Positions 1,676 through 31,673 of a DNA stretch of 42,938 nucleotides are shown here, in pieces (position 1 is the stretch's first letter; each line of letters opens with the position of its first letter). This DNA comes from a virus (lineage: Duplodnaviria; Heunggongvirae; Uroviricota; Caudoviricetes): the IMG/VR virus record IMGVR_UViG_2541047938_000003, positions 1-42,938 of that record; one strand, 5' to 3'. Below the pieces are notes generated by a model that saw only the letters and a program-made list of their open reading frames with translations, did not search any database and was not told the origin of the DNA. The position numbers and the translations under genes are program-made.

Positions 1676-2556
1676 TGCACTCCCAAAGTGGCTACGACAT
1701 CACTCGCTGTTTCGCGGTTACTGCCTTTGCTGGATATAGCCCGGCGAGCACTGACGCGGTGCAGCGTGAAGCCGTGCTGTTCGTAAAGTTCAATTACGCG
1801 CGGAGCGGTAGAATTGCTGATCACCACTTTCGCCCCCCGCTGGTGGGCTGCCACACAGCTTTCCGTAAGCTCTACCTGGCTATCCCATGAGAACCCACCA
1901 GCCGCGTAGTTAGTGAAACCCGCGGTGCCGGGCAGCGGCTCATAAGGCGGATCGCAGTAAACGACGTCACCATCACCAGCCAGCGCGAGCGTGCGCCTGA
2001 AGCCTGCATTCATGAATACGCATGTGTGAGATTTCCGCTTAAATGCCTTGATCTCTTCTTCCGGGAAATATGGCGCTTTATATTTCCCAAAGCCGACGTT
2101 AAAAAAACCGTCCAGGTTATAGCGAATCAGGCCGTTAAAGCAGTGCCGATTGAGGTAAAGGAATGCTGCTGCACGCTCGACCGCATCCAGCCGCTGCGCG
2201 TTGAATGCTTCACGAATTAACGTATAGTTTTCGGCATCATTAAGATGCCTGAATGCCTTCATTGCCTCATAGATCACCGAATCGGGGACCACCGCCAGCA
2301 TCTGATACAGGTTAATCAGGTCAGCGCTGACGTCAGCCAGAAGGAAGCGTTCGTGCTTGTCTGAGTTAAGGAACACCGAGCCGCCACCCACAAAAGGCTC
2401 AATAAGGCGTTTACCTGCGGGGATCAGGCGATCCAGTTCCGGCAGCAGCGAATATTTGCCGCCAGCCCATTTAAGGAACGGGCGCTGCCAGCTGCGCAGC
2501 GCCGGTTCTTCTATGGGCATCGCCGCAGCTCCACTGCAAACAGATCCGTATCTCAT
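1672..2556 (-). CDS. dam: Dam-family DNA N6-adenine methyltransferase
   Basis: FLKWAGGKYSLLPEL and DPPY motifs; alternative start at 2520 (MPIEEP...) has a better GGAG RBS than the ATG at 2556. Confidence 0.85.
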   Translation of the reverse strand: MRYGSVCSGAAAMPIEEPALRSWQRPFLKWAGGKYSLLPELDRLIPAGKRLIEPFVGGGSVFLNSDKHERFLLADVSADLINLYQMLAVVPDSVIYEAMKAFRHLNDAENYTLIREAFNAQRLDAVERAAAFLYLNRHCFNGLIRYNLDGFFNVGFGKYKAPYFPEEEIKAFKRKSHTCVFMNAGFRRTLALAGDGDVVYCDPPYEPLPGTAGFTNYAAGGFSWDSQVELTESCVAAHQRGAKVVISNSTAPRVIELYEQHGFTLHRVSARRAISSKGSNRETASDVVATLGVQ

Positions 2557-2711
2557 GCTGCCACCTGCTTTTCGTTAAGTTCTTCAGCCAGTCGTTGCGC
2601 CTTCAGTGGGTTGGTAACGACTTCACCCCACGGCAGCAACCATCCGTTTTTCTCTTTGAGCCAGGGAAGGCGCACCGCGCCAACCCTGATTTCGTCGTGA
2701 GCGTGAGTCAT
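2553..2711 (-). CDS. Small hypothetical ORF (52 aa), not in the supplied track
   Basis: ATG at 2711 overlaps upstream stop (ATGA) and its TGA overlaps the ATG at 2556; reads MTHAHDEIRVGAVRLPWLKEKNGWLLPWGEVVTNPLKAQRLAEELNEKQVAA. Hand translation only. Confidence 0.35.
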   Translation of the reverse strand: MTHAHDEIRVGAVRLPWLKEKNGWLLPWGEVVTNPLKAQRLAEELNEKQVAA

Positions 2712-3136
2712 AGGATGGACTCCATTTCGTCGATGTAGAGGCCCTGAGCAATCAGGCGGCTACGGCGGGCGGCACGGGCTATGCACTCCTGCCGTCTACC
2801 TTCCTGCGATTGCTCAATGGCGCGCCGGGTGAACAGGCGCGATTTGCCCTGCGGCGTCACAACCTTCGGCTTCGTGACCAGGTCGAAAGTCCGGTCGCAG
2901 ATGCCGTCCCCGTTGATCCACTTTTCCGACTCAACGATCTGCGCTATCTGTCCGGAGCCGCGGGTAATACCGTTGGCTACCCGGTTAAACTCGATGAGCG
3001 TTACGCCAAACTTCTCAGCGATTTCGCTGCCGGTTACCGGGCGGCCGCGCGTCTGAATCATCCAGATAACGCGCTCACGAAGGCCGGAGAATTGCCCGGT
3101 GCGCCCTGGCCTGCGGTAAAATGGTGTGCGTTTCAT
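2708..3136 (-). CDS. Hypothetical protein, possibly DNA-binding
   Basis: 142-aa ORF in operon context with stop/start overlaps; no confident family. Confidence 0.45.
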   Translation of the reverse strand: MKRTPFYRRPGRTGQFSGLRERVIWMIQTRGRPVTGSEIAEKFGVTLIEFNRVANGITRGSGQIAQIVESEKWINGDGICDRTFDLVTKPKVVTPQGKSRLFTRRAIEQSQEGRRQECIARAARRSRLIAQGLYIDEMESIL

Positions 3137-3750
3137 GCTGCACGCTCTGTGATTTTCTGAATTTCCGATTCCAGATCTGCAAGGAAGCTCTTAACCTCAG
3201 ATTCGATTTCGCGCGCCAGCTCTTCATCGAAATGAATCCGCTTCTTGAAATAGGCGAGGTCAGGCGGCAGGCGATCATCGAAACTAACGAAATCACACCA
3301 TTTCCGCCCGGTGCACATCATCTGTGCATGCATTTGCAGCATGTACTGGCGCTTTGGCTCACCAGTTTTCAGCGTTTCAAGATGGGTCCAGGTGTTGGGG
3401 CATTTGATTTCGATAAGCCCGTCGTCGTTGACAAGTCCGTCCGGGCTGGCTGCGAATCCGGGTATGGTTGGGTGATCGATGAGCCCAACTTCAGTGATTG
3501 CCGCATTGAACTCATTCAGCGCGTACATTTCGCGTGCCACTGGCTCAAGTTCAGTGCCGCGCATCATCGCGGCATTCGAAAACCCTTCCTCCAGCTTCCC
3601 GGTCAGCCGTTGGCAAATCAGCTCGGCCATGTAGTTCTGGCGGCTGGTGGAGTAGCCCGACTTAGTCCGGGCCATGACATCAGCCAGGCGACTGGCTGTG
3701 ACCTTGCCGCAGCGCGCAGCAAACCATTCAGGGGTGCGTTGCTCTATCAT
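3133..3750 (-). CDS. YqaJ-like phage recombination exonuclease
   Basis: N-terminus MIEQRTPEWFAARCGKVTASR is a YqaJ/lambda-exo family signature; sits immediately downstream of the bet-like gene. Confidence 0.8.
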   Translation of the reverse strand: MIEQRTPEWFAARCGKVTASRLADVMARTKSGYSTSRQNYMAELICQRLTGKLEEGFSNAAMMRGTELEPVAREMYALNEFNAAITEVGLIDHPTIPGFAASPDGLVNDDGLIEIKCPNTWTHLETLKTGEPKRQYMLQMHAQMMCTGRKWCDFVSFDDRLPPDLAYFKKRIHFDEELAREIESEVKSFLADLESEIQKITERAA

Positions 3751-4508
3751 TCAGCCTCCGTCTCTGCGACATTGACAGGTTCGGCGTTGTCGACAGCAAG
3801 ACTCATGTCATACATGCGTCGTTTCTCAACTGCGCCGATCACCTGTTTCTCTTCGGCGCTCAGAGCCACCCAGAACTCCTGATACTTAACGGTTCCAAGG
3901 CGCGCGGCGGACTCACCTTTTGCGATCAGTTCCGGGCGGCGGCTATCTGATTCATGGCCCGCATGAACCTCTGCCGTTGTTCCTTCAATTACTCGCTCTG
4001 CCTCGTCCTGGTCGAAGATGCCAGCGAAACCAAAGGCCAGACGCGCGCACTGGATCAGCGTCTTGTGGCGAAGCATGCGGGTAGGGTGGGACTGCCATGG
4101 CTGAGTGTTGCGTTTGCACTCTCCCATGTACTCGGTGACGATGGTCGGGTGCTTACGGTCTTTGCGGTAAATCTTGCAGGTACACGCGCCTTCCTCCTTG
4201 TCGTAAGAGAACTCCATGCCGTCAAACTGAGGATGCTCGTTGATAATGCGAGCCCATCCATCAACGCCGACGACCGGGACAATCCCGCCTTTATCTGGGA
4301 ATGCGTAAATCTCTTTGGTCCATGGGTTCAGGCCGTACTGGTTGGCGACGATCAACAGGGCTGTAAACTGCTCGTCCGTGACGTTGCCACCTTTGAACGC
4401 TGTATTCTTCAGCGTATTCATCAGGTCTGTACCGGCATCCATGCCGAGGCGTGCGGCCAGTTTCCCGGCCATGGTGGAAAGTGCAGTACTCATTGTTAAA
4501 TCCCTCAA
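3747..4508 (-). CDS. bet: Bet/RecT-family single-strand annealing protein
   Basis: Strong resemblance to lambda Bet from memory (TALLIVANQYGLNPWTKEIYAFPDK, VGVDGW, RMLRHKTLIQCARLAFGFAGI). Confidence 0.85.
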   Translation of the reverse strand: MRDLTMSTALSTMAGKLAARLGMDAGTDLMNTLKNTAFKGGNVTDEQFTALLIVANQYGLNPWTKEIYAFPDKGGIVPVVGVDGWARIINEHPQFDGMEFSYDKEEGACTCKIYRKDRKHPTIVTEYMGECKRNTQPWQSHPTRMLRHKTLIQCARLAFGFAGIFDQDEAERVIEGTTAEVHAGHESDSRRPELIAKGESAARLGTVKYQEFWVALSAEEKQVIGAVEKRRMYDMSLAVDNAEPVNVAETEAE

Positions 4509-4511
4509 AAA

Positions 4512-4796
4512 TTAAAACGGGCAGCCGGTACGGTGTTCCCAGTCGTATTCCGCCTGGGCGTAAGCAACTACCGAAATGAAATCGTTGTAGGCCTCGCCAG
4601 CTTTATCGCTGCGAAGCCCTTCGTATGGGCTGGAGTCTATCGGGATCGTGAAGTGGAAGAGGCCGGACGGCTCTTTAGGCATCATGTCGATGATTTTCTG
4701 CGCCCGGTCGTCGATCCACTTCTCTTTCTCGTCGGTGATCTGCTGCTCAGCCCAGCGCCGATCTTCGATGCGGTCGTAAGTGAGGTATGCGTTCAT
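4512..4796 (-). CDS. gam: Gam-like host nuclease (RecBCD) inhibitor
   Basis: N-terminus MNAYLTYDRIEDRRWAEQQ resembles the lambda Gam short form [21 protein letters not shown]; position after bet/exo. Confidence 0.65.
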   Translation of the reverse strand: MNAYLTYDRIEDRRWAEQQITDEKEKWIDDRAQKIIDMMPKEPSGLFHFTIPIDSSPYEGLRSDKAGEAYNDFISVVAYAQAEYDWEHRTGCPF

Positions 4797-4803
4797 GGTT
4801 GCC

Positions 4804-5775
4804 TCAGTAATGAATTTTCGCGCAGGGGATCAGGTTATCTTTCAGAGCGGTAAGCACTTCGATAGCCTGCTCGCGGGTTAAGCTGGTTTGGCTGGTGAGC
4901 GCGTTAACGATGTTGGTGCCGACCGTCTTGCGGTGCTTAACGTCAGCTTCACGCTTTGCCTGCTCATCGGCGAGGCGCTTCTCTTCGGCCAGGCGGGCAT
5001 CTTCGGCCTGTTTGGCCTTCAGGCGCTCGGCTTCAACCGCCGCGGCTTTTTCGCGTTCCGCCCGGGCTTCCGCTTCCTGCTTCTCGCGAGCTGCACGCTG
5101 TTCCGCTTCGACGCGCTGGCGCTCCGCCAGTTCAGCGCGGGCTTTCTCTTCGGCTTCACGGCGCGCTGCGGCTTCAATCTCCGCTTTGTGCTTCGCTTCG
5201 GCATCGCGGCGGGCTTGTTCTGCCGCTTCCTGTTTCAGCCGCTCATCACGTTCACGCTGAGCCTGTTCCGCCAGACGGCGCTGCTCTTCGCGGTCACGGT
5301 CAAAATCCTTGTTCATCAGTAGAGCCATTTCGTGGTCCGCTTCGAACTTGGCAGCCAGCTCCTGATCGAACCTGATGTTCATCTCCAGCGCTTCGGCGTG
5401 CATCGCGTTCATGGCTTCTTCAGCCTTAATGCGTTCCTGCTCGGCTTCCCATTCGGTGAGTGGGCGGCGGGTCGCATCGCGCAGCTCGTCGCAGGCATCA
5501 ACGAATCGCTTAATTTCGGCCTCAGCCGGACGCACAGCCTCTTTCAGGCGCTTCAGGTACTCACGGCCCGGCTTTTCGATTGCCGTCTTGCTGCGGGACA
5601 CCTGCGCTGCCAGAGAGGCAACACGGTCACGGCCTTTCTTCGTGGACAGGTCCGGCACTTCGTTTACAGCCTGGCGGATTTGCTCAAGGTACGCGTCAAG
5701 GCCGCCCGCTACGTAAAGCACTGGGGCCTGTTCCGGCTTGATTTCGATGACAGTTAAGTCCGTTACTTCGCTCAT
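4804..5775 (-). CDS. Hypothetical coiled-coil protein with E/R/A/K-rich repeats
   Basis: 323 aa; the long charged low-complexity stretch explains the many spurious antisense ORFs in the track. Confidence 0.5.
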   Translation of the reverse strand: MSEVTDLTVIEIKPEQAPVLYVAGGLDAYLEQIRQAVNEVPDLSTKKGRDRVASLAAQVSRSKTAIEKPGREYLKRLKEAVRPAEAEIKRFVDACDELRDATRRPLTEWEAEQERIKAEEAMNAMHAEALEMNIRFDQELAAKFEADHEMALLMNKDFDRDREEQRRLAEQAQRERDERLKQEAAEQARRDAEAKHKAEIEAAARREAEEKARAELAERQRVEAEQRAAREKQEAEARAEREKAAAVEAERLKAKQAEDARLAEEKRLADEQAKREADVKHRKTVGTNIVNALTSQTSLTREQAIEVLTALKDNLIPCAKIHY

Positions 5776-5845
5776 GGTTTCTCCTGAAATTTGGATGTGC
5801 AGATCCCGCCCGCGTAATGCCAGGCCGATCGGTTGAATAGGGTGG

Positions 5846-6043
5846 TTACTGCTGCGCGATGGATTTCGCCGGGAACTCGCCGTTGCGGATGATGCTTTCT
5901 ACCGGCCAGCACTCAGCTGACACTTTCTGCTCTGTAGCTGCCAGGCTGCATTCCTGCTGGCTGTCGTAAACGCCGAGAATGACATCCTGATAATCACCGT
6001 TGGTCATTGCCACGGTCAGGACGAGTGCGAATAAAGTTTCCAT
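5846..6043 (-). CDS. Small protein with N-terminal hydrophobic segment (likely start at internal Met)
   Basis: ATG at 6043 preceded by GGGAGGA; METLFALVLTVAMTNG... looks like a signal peptide or TM helix; 66 aa. Confidence 0.45.
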   Translation of the reverse strand: METLFALVLTVAMTNGDYQDVILGVYDSQQECSLAATEQKVSAECWPVESIIRNGEFPAKSIAQQ

Positions 6044-6171
6044 CAGTGAAGAGTCCTCCCGATGGCGACGGCGTAAAGGCGTTTTGCTTCTTCCCACGCC
6101 GGAGCATTGCGATGGAGCACCGCGAACGACGCGAGCCGTTGGGCCTCTCTGATCTGCTGCTGGTTTACCAT
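6043..6171 (-). CDS. Small hypothetical ORF (42 aa), not in the supplied track
   Basis: ATG at 6171 preceded by GAGGAA; stop overlaps the ATG at 6043 (TGATG); MVNQQQIREAQRLASFAVLHRNAPAWEEAKRLYAVAIGRTLH. Confidence 0.3.
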   Translation of the reverse strand: MVNQQQIREAQRLASFAVLHRNAPAWEEAKRLYAVAIGRTLH

Positions 6172-6503
6172 GATTTCCTCTTGGCCTTATCGCGGCGAAC
6201 GGAACGGTTAATACAAGACTTCAACGCATTTATTCAGTGTTTCAATGGGCGGTGGATGGCCGCCGGTTGTCATAAATGGGCAGACTCGAAAATCTGCCTA
6301 TGTATGGCCGATAAAAAACCCGCCGGAGCGGGTCATTCATTCTTTGGTATGCCGCAAAGGGCGTTTAGCGTTTCAACGGGAATGGCAAGTGCGGTGCTGG
6401 TCGCTTCACGGCGTTCCACCTCAGGCAAATATGGCACTGCCTCAGGCCACATCTCAGCCAGTTTTTTAACAGTTGAGACTTTGGTTAGAGCACCTTTAAC
6501 CTG

Positions 6504-7001
6504 CTATTGGAAGGCATCAACTTCATCGTAAAGAACGTTGATGGTTACCGTCGATTCAGTGAGTCGGTCGTGTAATTTTCCAACTTTCTTCAGCGTGCTG
6601 TAACTTTCAGGAACGAAACCCGAATCAATTACAGGCGCGAAGGAAGCTCCGAAGAACAGGTCGCTTTCAAGATCGTGCTTACCAATATGTTTTCCACGGT
6701 GGCGATAGCGATGATCCAAACCGTTCCTGGCTAATTCGTGATACTCACCATTAATAATGACCTTTAAAATTGCAGTTTTAGCGCCGACCTGCATCTTGAT
6801 GAAGGAGTTATCTTTGAAATCTTCCCGAGCCTTAGTTATTTGCTCATCGCTAGTGTTTTCCTGCTTGAGCAATGCCTGTCGAATTTCTTCAACAATTTTC
6901 GCCCTCTCATTAACCGCAGCTTTCGCTTTCTCAAACAATGGGGATGCGAGAAGCAGGTTATGGCATAGCTGATTTTTAATTTCGTTGTTAAGACGAATCA
7001 T
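6504..7001 (-). CDS. Hypothetical accessory protein, first ORF of the leftward early operon
   Basis: 165 aa; AT-rich by eye relative to flanks; contains RYRHRGKH (Rx4H-like). Not arginine-rich, so not N-like. Confidence 0.5.
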   Translation of the reverse strand: MIRLNNEIKNQLCHNLLLASPLFEKAKAAVNERAKIVEEIRQALLKQENTSDEQITKAREDFKDNSFIKMQVGAKTAILKVIINGEYHELARNGLDHRYRHRGKHIGKHDLESDLFFGASFAPVIDSGFVPESYSTLKKVGKLHDRLTESTVTINVLYDEVDAFQ

Positions 7002-7419
7002 TGACTTACCCTCTGTCGTTACCCGCTGATGCGGGAGAAATGCTTTGGCGATGTGGTAGGTGGGAGACCCATTTCGACCCGATTCGGCCTACTTATCTTC
7101 GGCAATAGCTCCTCGGGCCTCGCCGCTTTACGTGCGACATATTCCCGTCCATGAACCCTTCACCACATCCCATAACATTCCCTGTATTGGTCAGCGCCAA
7201 CTCCCTGCCAGTGTTGCCCGTTCTCACGCCGTTCTCGCTCTCGCGCGGGGATACTCTCTCACCGACCGGATCGCACCCGGTGATACAGCACGTTTACGTG
7301 TAGGGGTCTTAACAGGTCATTGACGCTGTAAATCTGCATGTTGTTAAAAAGCAGGCGACTTGCTGTCCGCCGCTGGCTAACTTCGCTCAGCTGTCGATGT
7401 TTCGTTTCGATGGGGTAAA

Positions 7420-7533: not shown

Positions 7534-7557
7534 AAAAAAGCCCGCGCGATGGCGGGC
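7534..7557 (-). terminator. Rho-independent terminator downstream of the repressor gene
   Basis: Stem GCCCGC/GCGGGC (7540-7545 / 7552-7557) with 6-nt loop, followed on the minus strand by a six-T run. Confidence 0.6.
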
Positions 7558-7577
7558 TTGAGGGGTTTTGCGTGAGG

Positions 7578-14882: not shown

Positions 14883-15338
14883 ATGATTATCCCCAAAGAC
14901 GGCATCAAGCTACACCGTGGAAATCTTGGTGCTATCACTCAGCATCTGAAGCCACTTCTCGAAAACGGTGAGTGCTTCCGGCTCCAACTCAAAGACTGGC
15001 GCGAGAAGAGAAGCCTTTCACAAAATAGTCTGAGCCACGTTTGGTACAAGGAAATAAGCGACTACCTGATCAAGTCTGGGCGCACTGACGCAACGCCTGC
15101 ATGGGTAAAGCGAAACCTCAAAAAAACTTATCTGGGTTATGAAGAGGTTGAGTACACCGATTTCGTCACCGGAATTAAGACGATTGAATTAGAACTCCGC
15201 CACACGTCCGATCTGGACACTGGCGACATGCACCATTTCATGTGCCAGGTGGAAGGCTGGTGCGCTCAGTTTGGCCTGGTGCTCACAATCCCTCAAAGCA
15301 GCGAATTTCAGGTGCTGCGCGATAAGCAGGAGGCCTGA
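14883..15338 (+). CDS. ninB: NinB-like recombination protein
   Basis: ATG 14883 after AGGAGG; SLSQNSLSHVWYKEIS resembles lambda NinB SLDQNRKLWACLGDVS. Confidence 0.7.
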   Translation: MIIPKDGIKLHRGNLGAITQHLKPLLENGECFRLQLKDWREKRSLSQNSLSHVWYKEISDYLIKSGRTDATPAWVKRNLKKTYLGYEEVEYTDFVTGIKTIELELRHTSDLDTGDMHHFMCQVEGWCAQFGLVLTIPQSSEFQVLRDKQEA

Positions 15339-15508
15339 TGTCAACTCCACTTTCCCGCGTCATCACAAACGAAATCTTTCGCGTTCCGGCGCGCCGCAAG
15401 CCTAAGCCCGCGGTTAAGCCGTCCGATATCCCGACCCTGAAAGACTACACCGCCCGCCTGGTGGATCAGAAATGGCTGCGTCTCGCAGCGAGGAGAAAAT
15501 CAGCATGA
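15338..15508 (+). CDS. ninE: NinE-like small protein (56 aa), not in the supplied track
   Basis: Hand translation [56 protein letters not shown]; C-terminus resembles lambda NinE; ATGA overlaps on both sides. Confidence 0.55.
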
Positions 15509-17605: not shown

Positions 17606-17671
17606 ATAGCATATATTTCATGTAAATCTGATATCGTCGCCATAGCTTCGTAGGTCGACAAAGAATTAAGA

Positions 17672-17696
17672 GCCTCGCCATCGTGCGGGGCTTTTT
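17672..17696 (+). terminator. Rho-independent terminator (candidate tR'-like)
   Basis: GCCTCGC-CATCGT-GCGGGGC stem (one G-U pair) followed by TTTTT. Confidence 0.55.
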
Positions 17697-17703
17697 CATT
17701 TCA

Positions 17704-17778
17704 GGGTCAGAAGCACAGCGGTTGTGCGTTCGGCTGTTAACCGAATGGTCGAAGGTTCGAATCCTTCCTGTCCCGCCA
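17704..17778 (+). tRNA. tRNA-Asn-like gene (anticodon GUU), phage-encoded
   Basis: Hand-folded cloverleaf: D-stem GCAC/GTGC, anticodon stem TTCGG/CCGAA with loop CTGTTAA, T-arm GAAGG-TTCGAAT-CCTTC, 3' GCCA; one U-U mismatch in acceptor stem. Confidence 0.55.
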
Positions 17779-18239: not shown

Positions 18240-18656
18240 GCTGCGCGTCAGAGGTTCGATTCCTTTGCCCGCTCCAGTAAAAGCTTTCCAGTCTGCGATG
18301 ATGGGTTCCCCGGAGTGACTGGAAAGCGACCTGGTTTTGAATGGGCGCTGCTTTTTGCAAAATTGCTGTGTGAAAATACTGACCTTTGGGTTCAGCGCTC
18401 ATCCAAAAGCATCACGTGAATTCACCAACGCTCATGTACTCTCCAGGAAACAATAAGTGATTCTGAAAAGTTCCGGTTAGATATTGCCCCGGTCACCGGA
18501 TGATTTTATCTTTTGGTTCGTGGTGAATCCCCCTATGCGGCGGGGCGTCCAGTCAAACTTTTTTGTCCAGGTTTGTTTGCGCGGAACTAGTCGGCTGGGG
18601 CTGTTCCACCGGGAGGCACCCGGCGCCACCTCCTTGACGGTATTGTTATTTTTCAT

Positions 18657-18683
18657 GCCTGTTCGTCCGAGCAGGCTTTTTTT
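18657..18683 (+). terminator. Candidate rho-independent terminator
   Basis: GCCTG-(10 nt loop)-CAGGC followed by seven T; short stem so moderate. Confidence 0.4.
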
Positions 18684-19092
18684 GCCCGCATTATCTTCAT
18701 TGAAAACTGGCAACTCAGAGAATCATCCAAATTAAAAAAGCAGCAACGAGAGCGATTACTAATACATTCTTCGCTTTTTCTCTTCTGCTGGCCTTCACAA
18801 AAGGATTCACTATCCGGCAGTGGCTACACACAAGTGATTCTGGGTTAATTAACTTTCCGCAGTAGGGGCAGGGCTTGATAATCATTGGTACTAATTAAGT
18901 TGTGAGAACGTAGTCTCATTTAACCACATTTATCGAGTTGTTTTACTAATGGTCTAGTTATTTCAGACATATTCATCAATTTCAGGCTCACGGGAATCAT
19001 CCGCTACGTGCTTTGTTGATAAATCCAGCCCGTGAAGCCTGACCCTTTTCAAACACACACACAGCGCCATCCGAAAAATCGGAGGTGAGGCT

Positions 19093-30170: not shown

Positions 30171-31673
30171 ATGTCGGCATCAATTAATAACGTCATTAAT
30201 GTGACGCTTCTCGAAGAGGGACGGGCGGCGGCGCGAGATAACATCAACGTTTGCGCAATGCTTACCAGCCAGACGGGGGTATTGAGCACCGCTGAACGCT
30301 GGCGTTCATACAAAAGCGCATCTGCTGTCGAACAGGACTGGGGGGCTTCTTCGGTCACCGCAGCATTTGCGAATGTGTTTTTCGGGACCAGCCCTAACCC
30401 GGTATCCGCGGGCGGCACGCTGATCGTCGGTTACTGGAACGCTGCCGGGGAAACGCTGCCTGCGACCAGCGGTGTACTGCGTGGCGGTGAGATTTCTCAG
30501 GCAGTCGTACTGCCAGCGTTACGCGAGAAGTCTGACTGGTCATTCAGTATTGAGATTGACGGTACGAAGCACGATGTGACCGAAATTAATGGCATGACGG
30601 CGACGACACTGGCAGATGTAATCGCCCAAATCCAGGCGAAAATTACGCCAGATGTTGCATCGGTTGTTTTTGATGGCAGCCGTATAGCGATTACCAGCAA
30701 ATCGACAGGGACTAACTCTGTTGTTGGTTATCCGACAGTGCTGGATGGTGGCTCTTTTATTGGCGATCTGCTGGCGGTTGCGGAGGGTTCCGGCGCTTCG
30801 CTGGTAAACGGTAGCGCATCAACTGAGATTTCACCGGAAACACAACTGGAATCTCTCAGCAAACTCAAAGCGCAGGTCAACGTAAAAGGCGCGGCCTTCA
30901 TCGACAAAATTCTCGATGCGCAGGTGCCGTTGATCGCTTCATGGGCTAAAGCGAACGCGGTAATCGTGTATGAGACATTTACCGGTTCGGCAGCTCTGGA
31001 AGTTGATCCGACTAACCCGGCATGGGCGGTAACACTCGCCAGCCAGAGTAATTTCCGCATGCTCTACAGCAAATCAGGCAACCGGAAATTTAGTGTTAGC
31101 TATATGGCGCGCACGCATACCGTTAATTTCAACGGAGAACGCACTGCAATCACTTTGCACCTCAAAACGATGAACGTGCCGGCCGAAAGTTATGAGCAGA
31201 CGGAGATCGACAAAGCGAAGCGCGTAGGTCTCGACATCTACACCACGATTAAAGACGTTCCCTGCGTGCTGTCAAGCGGTGCTAATGATTTTGTCGACAA
31301 CGTCTATAACCTGATGGCCTACGTTGACGCAGTGCAGACGGATTCCTTCAACCTCCTTAAAACCACGCCGACTAAAGTCCCACAAACCTATTATGGCGTT
31401 GATCAGTTAGAGGACTGTGTAGAGAAAACCACGCATGGGTTTGTGAAGGCTGGGGTGTTCAATCCGGGTACCTGGACGCTGCCTGACTTCTTCGGGGATC
31501 GGGATATGTTTCTGCGAAATATCGAGCAAAACGGGTATTACGTGCTGGCCGGTGACCTGAAAGACCAGTCAACCGCAGACAGGCAGGAACGCAAATCCCC
31601 GGTTGTTCAGGTAGCAGTGAAGAATGCTGGTGCTGTTCACAGTGCCGATATCATCATCAATTTCAATAAATAA
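30171..31673 (+). CDS. Tail sheath protein (putative)
   Basis: 500 aa followed by a ~140-aa tube-sized protein, chaperone and tape measure; consistent with a contractile tail. Confidence 0.55.
   Translation: MSASINNVINVTLLEEGRAAARDNINVCAMLTSQTGVLSTAERWRSYKSASAVEQDWGASSVTAAFANVFFGTSPNPVSAGGTLIVGYWNAAGETLPATSGVLRGGEISQAVVLPALREKSDWSFSIEIDGTKHDVTEINGMTATTLADVIAQIQAKITPDVASVVFDGSRIAITSKSTGTNSVVGYPTVLDGGSFIGDLLAVAEGSGASLVNGSASTEISPETQLESLSKLKAQVNVKGAAFIDKILDAQVPLIASWAKANAVIVYETFTGSAALEVDPTNPAWAVTLASQSNFRMLYSKSGNRKFSVSYMARTHTVNFNGERTAITLHLKTMNVPAESYEQTEIDKAKRVGLDIYTTIKDVPCVLSSGANDFVDNVYNLMAYVDAVQTDSFNLLKTTPTKVPQTYYGVDQLEDCVEKTTHGFVKAGVFNPGTWTLPDFFGDRDMFLRNIEQNGYYVLAGDLKDQSTADRQERKSPVVQVAVKNAGAVHSADIIINFNK

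Follow-up and report, generated by a model that had tools for sequence, protein, structure and literature searches.

The Kil peptides of lambdoid phages have been studied as natural inhibitors of FtsZ; lambda Kil blocks assembly of the FtsZ ring, and the filamentation that it causes depends on ZipA. In the Qin prophage of Escherichia coli K-12, the lysis protein YdfD is accompanied by the division inhibitor DicB, which acts via MinC, whereas lambda Kil acts via FtsZ and ZipA. Where small genes of this kind abut, overlapping stop and start codons are the usual arrangement for translational coupling. Lambda Kil is predicted to form two helices, at residues 4-18 and 21-38, with a turn at G19-D20 (PMC11762379). 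YdfD's N-terminal domain binds IspG, and IspG binding together with division-dependent lysis is known only for the K-12 protein (PMC8835842). Here we consider a stretch of 42,938 nucleotides (nt) from IMG/VR record IMGVR_UViG_2541047938_000003 (positions 1 to 42,938; hereafter the window), which is a lambdoid prophage of phi80/Rac-like type, and in particular orf42, a gene of 42 amino acids (aa) at 6171-6043 on the minus strand that overlaps the start of a ydfD-like gene. A first-pass annotation of the window had followed chains of overlapping genes to three small open reading frames (ORFs), namely orf52 (2553-2711, minus strand, 52 aa), orf42 (6043-6171, minus strand) and a NinE-like ORF (15338-15508, plus strand, 56 aa). 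All three lie where it placed them, and tracing the stop/start overlaps does lead to three real genes of less than 60 aa whose reading frames are kept in diverged relatives.

The explanation that best accounts for the observations, and in which we place moderate confidence, is that the small ORFs are real and that orf42 encodes a Kil-type inhibitor in a coupled cassette with the ydfD-like gene. The product of that gene (6043-5846, minus strand) has 65 aa, not the 66 aa given before, matches Pfam DUF1482 (PF07358) with 85.3 bits against a cutoff of 25, and is 44% identical to K-12 YdfD (E 2e-18), which itself matches DUF1482. The protein noted earlier for a 'signal-like N-terminus' is therefore, on sequence criteria, a YdfD homolog. 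All junctions reported here were read or computed directly from the window sequence, and the one between orf42 and the DUF1482 gene is a 1-nt TGATG overlap at 6043 rather than the ATGA that had been supposed. A GGGAGG Shine-Dalgarno site for the ydfD-like gene (6055-6060, minus strand) lies inside codons Gly38-Arg39 of orf42; since this site falls within the last orf42 codons and the start overlaps the stop, both small proteins are expected to be co-translated from the leftward early transcript. A gap of 70 nt follows the ydfD-like gene, which sets the pair apart as a separate cassette. In every locus recovered orf42 stands directly upstream of a DUF1482 gene, while the flanking genes vary: the setting is Rac-like at some loci (DUF1482, ydaE, a racC-like gene, recE) and phi80-like at others (DUF1482, gamL, recT, exo). 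In four further loci an intact orf42 was present though the gene caller had missed it. In one locus (L016) it was the DUF1482 gene that was not called, its frame being without an ATG at the orf42 stop.

Several lines of comparison make it probable that orf42 is a divergent relative of the Kil family. The link surfaced only once more divergent family members and the HK97-type Kil were included. When the orf42 profile was run with HMMER over 1.8 billion representative proteins, members of 42-46 aa with greater divergence came to light, and 8 of the 15 family members hit phrog_2055, the HK97/HK022/mEp234 Kil family (best 27.6 bits, E 4.4e-6). Lambda Kil itself scores 28.7 bits on this model, so that the distances of lambda Kil and of the orf42 members from it are comparable. 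A hidden Markov model (HMM) built from 14 orf42 sequences matched HK97 and mEp234 Kil with 23.4-23.5 bits, ungapped over 36 residues, a score reached by 0 of 5000 shuffles; the alignment ends before the constrained C-terminus, and the positions shared with HK97 Kil read IN.Q..R.AQ..A..A....D.K.W.EA......AI. When the same HMM was run against a background of 3072 real ORFs from all retrieved loci, the two Kil proteins (E 6e-6) ranked directly after the orf42 family and one relative in phage BUCT618, and noise stayed at or below 10 bits except for two loci that had been retrieved by an orf42-derived pattern (17 bits). When profiles were compared by hhalign, the orf42 family matched a set of five annotated Kil proteins with a probability of 72.7% (E 3.2e-5).

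Recognised Kil peptides also occur in the same coupled position. Upstream of the genes for close homologs of the DUF1482 protein (63% and 77% identical), and with a TGATG junction, stand genes for peptides of 39 and 42 aa. The first of these peptides (L030) is matched by the orf42 HMM with 28.7 bits and passes the gathering score of Pfam Lambda_Kil (PF06301; 31.2 vs 27.6 bits), and the second remains below the threshold of that model (21 bits) and is named Kil by NCBI. In all, L030, L035 and E. coli BY63 each have a Kil recognised by Pfam or by the NCBI Prokaryotic Genome Annotation Pipeline (PGAP) that is joined by TGATG to a close DUF1482 homolog downstream of it; in BY63 PGAP itself annotates Kil adjoining DUF1482. 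A search with tblastn of orf42 against 50,697 phage records gave one weak hit, in Escherichia phage BUCT618 (L023, 2001-2117, plus strand), where the orf42 HMM matches a 38-aa 'hypothetical protein' (MNQQKFESAQRAARLAVKCRSKGAWKEAMRLLREAIYA) with 33.5 bits. This relative is not beside a DUF1482 gene, indicating that the orf42-type hairpin exists outside the YdfD cassette.

In structure and position, too, orf42 resembles Kil. The AlphaFold2 model of orf42 is a helical hairpin with helices at 2-19 and 23-36 (predicted local distance difference test 90.4), and Kil peptides of both the HK97/HK022/mEp234 type (phrog_2055) and the lambda type (PF06301, phrog_3924) share with it a length of 40-50 aa, a predicted helix-turn-helix hairpin whose turn falls at the corresponding point, and a place in the leftward early operon that follows the N-slot terminator and precedes the gam and recombination genes. 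For orf42 this is the interval between the N/tL1 region and gam. A Foldseek search of the hairpin model against the PDB gave no match below E 4 and was non-specific. Unlike these Kil peptides, orf42 is without the FIGD turn motif (LHRN stands in its place) and without the basic C-terminal tail; its C-terminal GRTLH is specified by the next gene's Shine-Dalgarno site. It is also always coupled to a ydfD-type gene, whereas the kil genes of lambda and HK97 are not.

The slot itself is known for division inhibitors. Sister prophages with the same repressor, N-slot gene and downstream genes carry a phrog_294 Kil of the KilR/phi80 type where the window has orf42, annotated as 'phage encoded cell division inhibitor protein' in one and as 'cell division protein FtsZ' in the other, and in Rac-like relatives the orf42/DUF1482 pair sits exactly at the kilR position of Rac, directly before ydaE. 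KilR of Rac and phi80 Kil are early-left division inhibitors that share the slot and its identical flanks with orf42; they differ from it in length (~70 aa), are unrelated to it in sequence and are not coupled to a DUF1482 gene. An initial identification of the 65-aa gene as the phi80 kil was dropped, as the Kil proteins of phi80 and CobraSix belong to a different family, phrog_294. Homology and position together leave the chances that orf42 inhibits cell division evenly balanced in our judgement.

The earlier idea that the small ORFs encode Kil- or CIII-like inhibitors therefore holds in one part: orf42 is a remote Kil-family relative in the slot of KilR and phi80 Kil, but orf52 belongs to the Orf60a/DUF1317 family of the exo-xis region, and NinE is located in the rightward nin region, not in the early-left operon. 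No resemblance to CIII was found, either with the orf42 HMM against lambda CIII (-1.9 bits, 1899 of 5000 shuffles as high) or with the Pfam CIII model, which was hit by no small ORF of the region. Nor did orf42 show similarity to Rac YdaG or to a 37-aa partner of DUF1482 in Klebsiella, described below.

A number of points weigh against the Kil assignment and the function read from it. The orf42 of the window is too divergent for the Kil models of Pfam, NCBIfam and PHROG, none of which it matches directly, and nothing emerged when orf42 was set directly against lambda Kil by hhalign, by HMMER and in Pfam at E up to 10; the family profile scores -0.7 bits against lambda Kil, a value equalled in 1561 of 5000 shuffles. 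Lambda-type Kil is reached only via HK97-type and bridging sequences, and the profile-profile match is weak when these are left out (E 0.058). The orf42 profile also matches repeats in long, apparently TPR-like proteins, suggesting that a generic amphipathic helical-hairpin signal contributes, and the last 5-6 residues of orf42, constrained by the downstream Shine-Dalgarno site, inflate some scores. Two of the 13 orf42 protein clusters described below carry frameshifts. As a separate observation on the long TPR-like matches from the 1.8-billion-protein library (P0164, P0166-P0168 and others), these proteins have 500-1500 aa with 4-12 repeated stretches each, and the Kil-type hairpin resembles a single TPR-like unit.

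These features could be accommodated if orf42 were a real protein that is not a Kil homolog, namely an unrelated TPR-like two-helix hairpin serving as a dedicated partner of the YdfD homolog. Such a peptide might bind and neutralise or chaperone the YdfD homolog in an antitoxin-like manner, with host division uninvolved. The strict co-occurrence and coupling with DUF1482 in every locus, the weak TPR and MIT hits, the matches of the profile to long multi-repeat proteins and the lack of direct similarity between orf42 and lambda Kil are all in keeping with this explanation, as is the variety of unrelated families found upstream of DUF1482 (DicB, phrog_3722, phrog_22279), which suggests that the slot may select any YdfD antagonist. 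We nevertheless regard it as unlikely. The HK97 and mEp234 Kil proteins, at 23 bits, stand far above all other ORFs in the 3072-ORF background, and the Kil PHROG, with its 8 hits, is the family hit by most members. Peptides recognised as Kil by Pfam, PHROG or PGAP occupy the same coupled position before DUF1482, and the HK97-type Kil occurs without any DUF1482 gene, so that the fold is not tied to YdfD. Kinship with the Kil family remains the reading we prefer.

That orf42 is a real coding gene is close to certain, despite the finding that it matches no model in Pfam, NCBIfam or PHROG and is usually skipped by gene callers, PGAP included. PGAP leaves it unannotated in E. coli PEC422 and AW1.7. 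The orf42/DUF1482 pair is carried, at 95% identity or more, by 23 of 5,426 complete E. coli genomes. At most one of these has an annotation besides the DUF1482 gene within the matching stretch, which leaves orf42 without annotation in at least 22. When 5.8 billion proteins were searched, orf42 homologs fell into 13 clusters: 10 are exactly 42 aa long, one has 41 aa, one is extended upstream by 30 aa and two are frameshifted, and full-length homologs are as little as 71% identical. In species-representative genomes two true loci were found, both in Enterobacter and 100% identical at the protein level; two further hits of that scan were pattern artefacts. Each homologous locus has a GAGG or GGAG motif 4-9 nt 5' of the ATG despite differing upstream sequences, and in the window this Shine-Dalgarno site is AGAGG at 6177-6181 (minus strand), 5 nt upstream of the ATG.

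The pattern of substitution bears on whether the peptide or merely its translation is maintained. A leader ORF, whose translation delivers ribosomes to the ydfD-like start and whose peptide is functionless, would fit the TGATG overlap and the strict conservation of the downstream Shine-Dalgarno site. The block ATCGGGAGGA that holds GGGAGG is nucleotide-invariant in 10 of 10 aligned orf42 copies, synonymous sites included, the invariant last codons being ATC GGG AGG AC., and the junction is TGATG across the copies except for TAAATG in one lineage and the lack of an abutting ATG in L016. The habit of gene callers of passing orf42 over would fit as well. A pure leader would, however, keep its frame and length but not its residues, and the residues of orf42 are under strong purifying selection over the whole length of the gene: 11 are invariant across 15 sequences, variable sites at codon positions 1, 2 and 3 number 16, 15 and 35 in the ten aligned DNA copies, and the pairwise ratio of nonsynonymous to synonymous change (dN/dS) is 0.03-0.34 for pairs with unsaturated dS, dS being often saturated. 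We consider the leader explanation very improbable. The substitution pattern likewise follows the minus-strand frame rather than that of an overlapping plus-strand ORF (6007-6531, 174 aa), which was rejected as a gene. Conservation of synonymous versus nonsynonymous sites had been proposed as a check on the small ORFs, and it comes out in their favour for orf42 and, with nonsynonymous differences (pN) well below synonymous ones (pS), for orf52. That the small ORFs arose by chance in an operon dense with genes, and overlap by coincidence, is a negligible possibility which the conservation data refute: short ORFs are plentiful (the first 9 kb are overlapped by 105 with 30 aa or more), so that an ORF of 40-50 aa is by itself no evidence and conservation has to supply it, and two of the three ORFs pass curated family thresholds, all three keep their frame in diverged relatives, and orf42 and orf52 show codon-level selection.

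Sequence and conservation suggest how the orf42 cassette may be expressed. After induction, leftward transcription would pass the terminator at 6334-6317, ribosomes would load at orf42's own Shine-Dalgarno site, and they would stop at UGA and restart on the overlapping AUG of the ydfD-like gene (UGAUG). By homology and position, the orf42 peptide would be a Kil-type hairpin that blocks Z-ring assembly. YdfD of K-12 inhibits IspG, its lysis requires ongoing division, and this lysis is prevented by the co-expressed division inhibitors DicB or SulA (PMC8835842). By analogy with dicB-ydfD of Qin, division arrest could restrain the division-dependent lysis exerted by the YdfD homolog of the window. 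That orf42 gates the YdfD homolog in this way is a tentative proposal, which we think rather less likely to be right than wrong.

The comparison with Qin is one of arrangement. In K-12, dicB is ATGA-coupled upstream of ydfD, likewise in phages mEp460 and PPompW, so that orf42 occupies the DicB position. In both systems a small gene runs into the start of the DUF1482/YdfD gene that follows; gene order and operon region agree, and the overlap is TGATG for orf42 and ATGA for dicB. DicB, a division inhibitor that prevents YdfD lysis, shares with orf42 only its position upstream of ydfD: the orf42 HMM gives DicB -1.9 bits, a score reached by 1994 of 5000 shuffles, and orf42 has no hit to Pfam DicB (PF05358).

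Small genes of two uncharacterised families stand, tightly coupled, ahead of other DUF1482/YdfD genes. A 66-aa phrog_3722 protein is found upstream of DUF1482 in Citrobacter phage Omnitron, Salmonella phage SW-37 and E. coli EC2001, and a 37-aa phrog_22279 protein in Klebsiella prophages (loci with coupled small genes: L025/L026 1001-1201, L039 1657-1857, L027 1091-1204). By their position, the two proteins are candidate division inhibitors or YdfD antagonists. The partners seen upstream of DUF1482 thus comprise DicB, Kil-type peptides, orf42-type peptides, phrog_3722 and phrog_22279. A general rule, under which YdfD-type lysis genes always stand in a two-gene cassette with an interchangeable coupled division inhibitor upstream, can be formulated from this, and we regard it as doubtful at present.

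The other two small genes belong to known families. orf52 is the counterpart of lambda Orf60a: it matches Pfam DUF1317 (PF07026) with 69.9 bits against a cutoff of 22.3 and phrog_1998 end to end (E 4.7e-29), tblastn finds homologs in 213 phage records, and its match in lambda is the annotated orf60a (31169-31351), directly after exo, at 57% identity. Both proteins carry the motif NPLKAQRLAEE and are encoded downstream of exo in the leftward operon. They differ in length (60 aa for lambda Orf60a and 52 aa for orf52) and in their neighbours, since in the window a 142-aa gene, orf142, stands between exo and orf52, and the gene that follows encodes the Dam methylase, where lambda has orf63 and orf61. 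In comparisons between diverged homologs (phi80, CobraSix, lambda and three metagenomic relatives), pN is 0.13-0.36 against pS of 0.49-0.83, that is, nonsynonymous difference 2- to 5-fold under synonymous, and the motif is invariant in the same set except for one Q-to-H change. The Orf60a family of the exo-xis region modulates the lysis-lysogeny decision and prophage induction, and deletion of orf60a in lambda and in the Stx phage Phi24B impairs both (PMC6213356). The phi80 RefSeq record (NC_021190.1) omits from its annotation phi80's own Orf60a/DUF1317 homolog, which has 50 aa and lies at 2655-2807 (minus strand) between damL and gp35, with ATGA overlaps on both sides.

The third ORF is NinE. 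It passes the NCBIfam subfamily model NF007245 (105.4 bits, cutoff 88) and Pfam NinE (PF05322; 28.9 bits, cutoff 25) and, as the first-pass annotation had it, bridges ninB and a phosphatase gene, its neighbours being a homolog of NinB (phrog_72, E 1e-40) on one side and, on the other, a NinI-like phosphatase (phrog_246). As in lambda, it is found in the nin region after NinB; the nin region of the window is shorter than that of lambda, and NinE directly precedes the NinI-like phosphatase. Its junction with NinB is a 1-nt TGATG overlap (15338) and that with the phosphatase an ATGA overlap (15505-15508), the latter as described before. Pfam, NCBIfam and PHROG routinely recognise both orf52 and NinE, which were hidden only by a display cutoff of 60 aa; of the three genes said to have been missed, orf42 alone was truly overlooked by annotation.

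The prophage has a mosaic relation to phage phi80. Between about 7000 and 1191 every gene lies on the minus strand, and together these genes make up the leftward early operon. First in transcription order is an Nmad5-family gene in the place of N (7001-6333), followed by an intrinsic-terminator-like hairpin with a T-run (6334-6317, from a terminator scan) upstream of orf42. Next downstream of the orf42/ydfD-like pair comes a homolog of phi80 agt/mog (5775-4804, 323 aa; phrog_1376 and phi80 annotation), and then gamL (4796-4512), recT (4493-3747), exo (3750-3133), orf142 (3136-2708), orf52 (2711-2553), dam (2556-1672), a DUF4060 gene ending at 1430 and xis ending at 1191; orf52 accordingly lies between exo and xis. 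Four consecutive 4-nt ATGA overlaps run through 2553-3750, at recT/exo (3747-3750), exo/orf142 (3133-3136), orf142/orf52 (2708-2711) and orf52/dam (2553-2556), the last two as claimed earlier, and dam and the DUF4060 gene share a 1-nt TGATG overlap at 1672. The gamL and agt/mog homologs (4512-4796 and 4804-5775, minus strand) form a second toxin/modifier-like pair within the operon, to which the phi80 record gives the labels 'toxic without Mog' and 'anti-toxin for Gam'.

Where the antiterminator N would stand, the Nmad5-family gene of 222 aa (6333-7001, minus strand) fills the slot exactly, and no N homolog was seen. The start and leader of the Nmad5-family gene (6997-7100) share 97% identity with those of phi80 N, and 6176-6293, after the N-slot terminator, shares 93% with the part of phi80 that lies between tL1A and tL1B. 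The region 5700-7100 is 99.9% identical to a prophage of E. coli PEC422, the sole difference in 1401 nt being an amber TAG in the Nmad5-family gene (6504-6506, minus strand) where PEC422 has TTG (Leu), which cuts the protein from 222 to 165 aa. Rfam gave no match over 5700-7100, and hence no known small RNA such as KilS lies upstream of orf42. Elsewhere in the window, a second strong terminator-like hairpin with a T-run follows the LexA-like repressor gene (7538-7559, minus strand), and Rfam matches above the gathering score cluster at the late-region junction: an isrJ-like Hfq-binding small RNA (17621-17694), a tRNA (17704-17775) and the small RNA STnc100 (18495-18687), all on the plus strand.

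Taken together, the observation of coupled small genes was correct and mostly ordinary. orf52 and NinE are textbook lambdoid small genes that merely confirm that a 60-aa display cutoff hides routine members of these operons, and orf42 is a real annotation gap, a conserved 42-aa gene left out by the standard NCBI pipeline in nearly all complete E. coli genomes that carry it. From its sequence it can now be given the provisional label of a divergent Kil-family peptide, and a Kil variant so distant from lambda Kil would reveal which residues of the hairpin matter. If the cassette reading is true, orf42 would represent a new sequence class of FtsZ-ring inhibitor, whose job would be the timing or gating of an IspG-targeting lysis protein during prophage induction, and the phrog_3722 and phrog_22279 partners would be predicted to be new division inhibitors too. 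The presence of a coupled inhibitor upstream of YdfD-type genes, whether DicB, Kil or orf42, would then turn a single observation in Qin into a testable rule on how prophages pair division arrest with an IspG-directed lysis protein.

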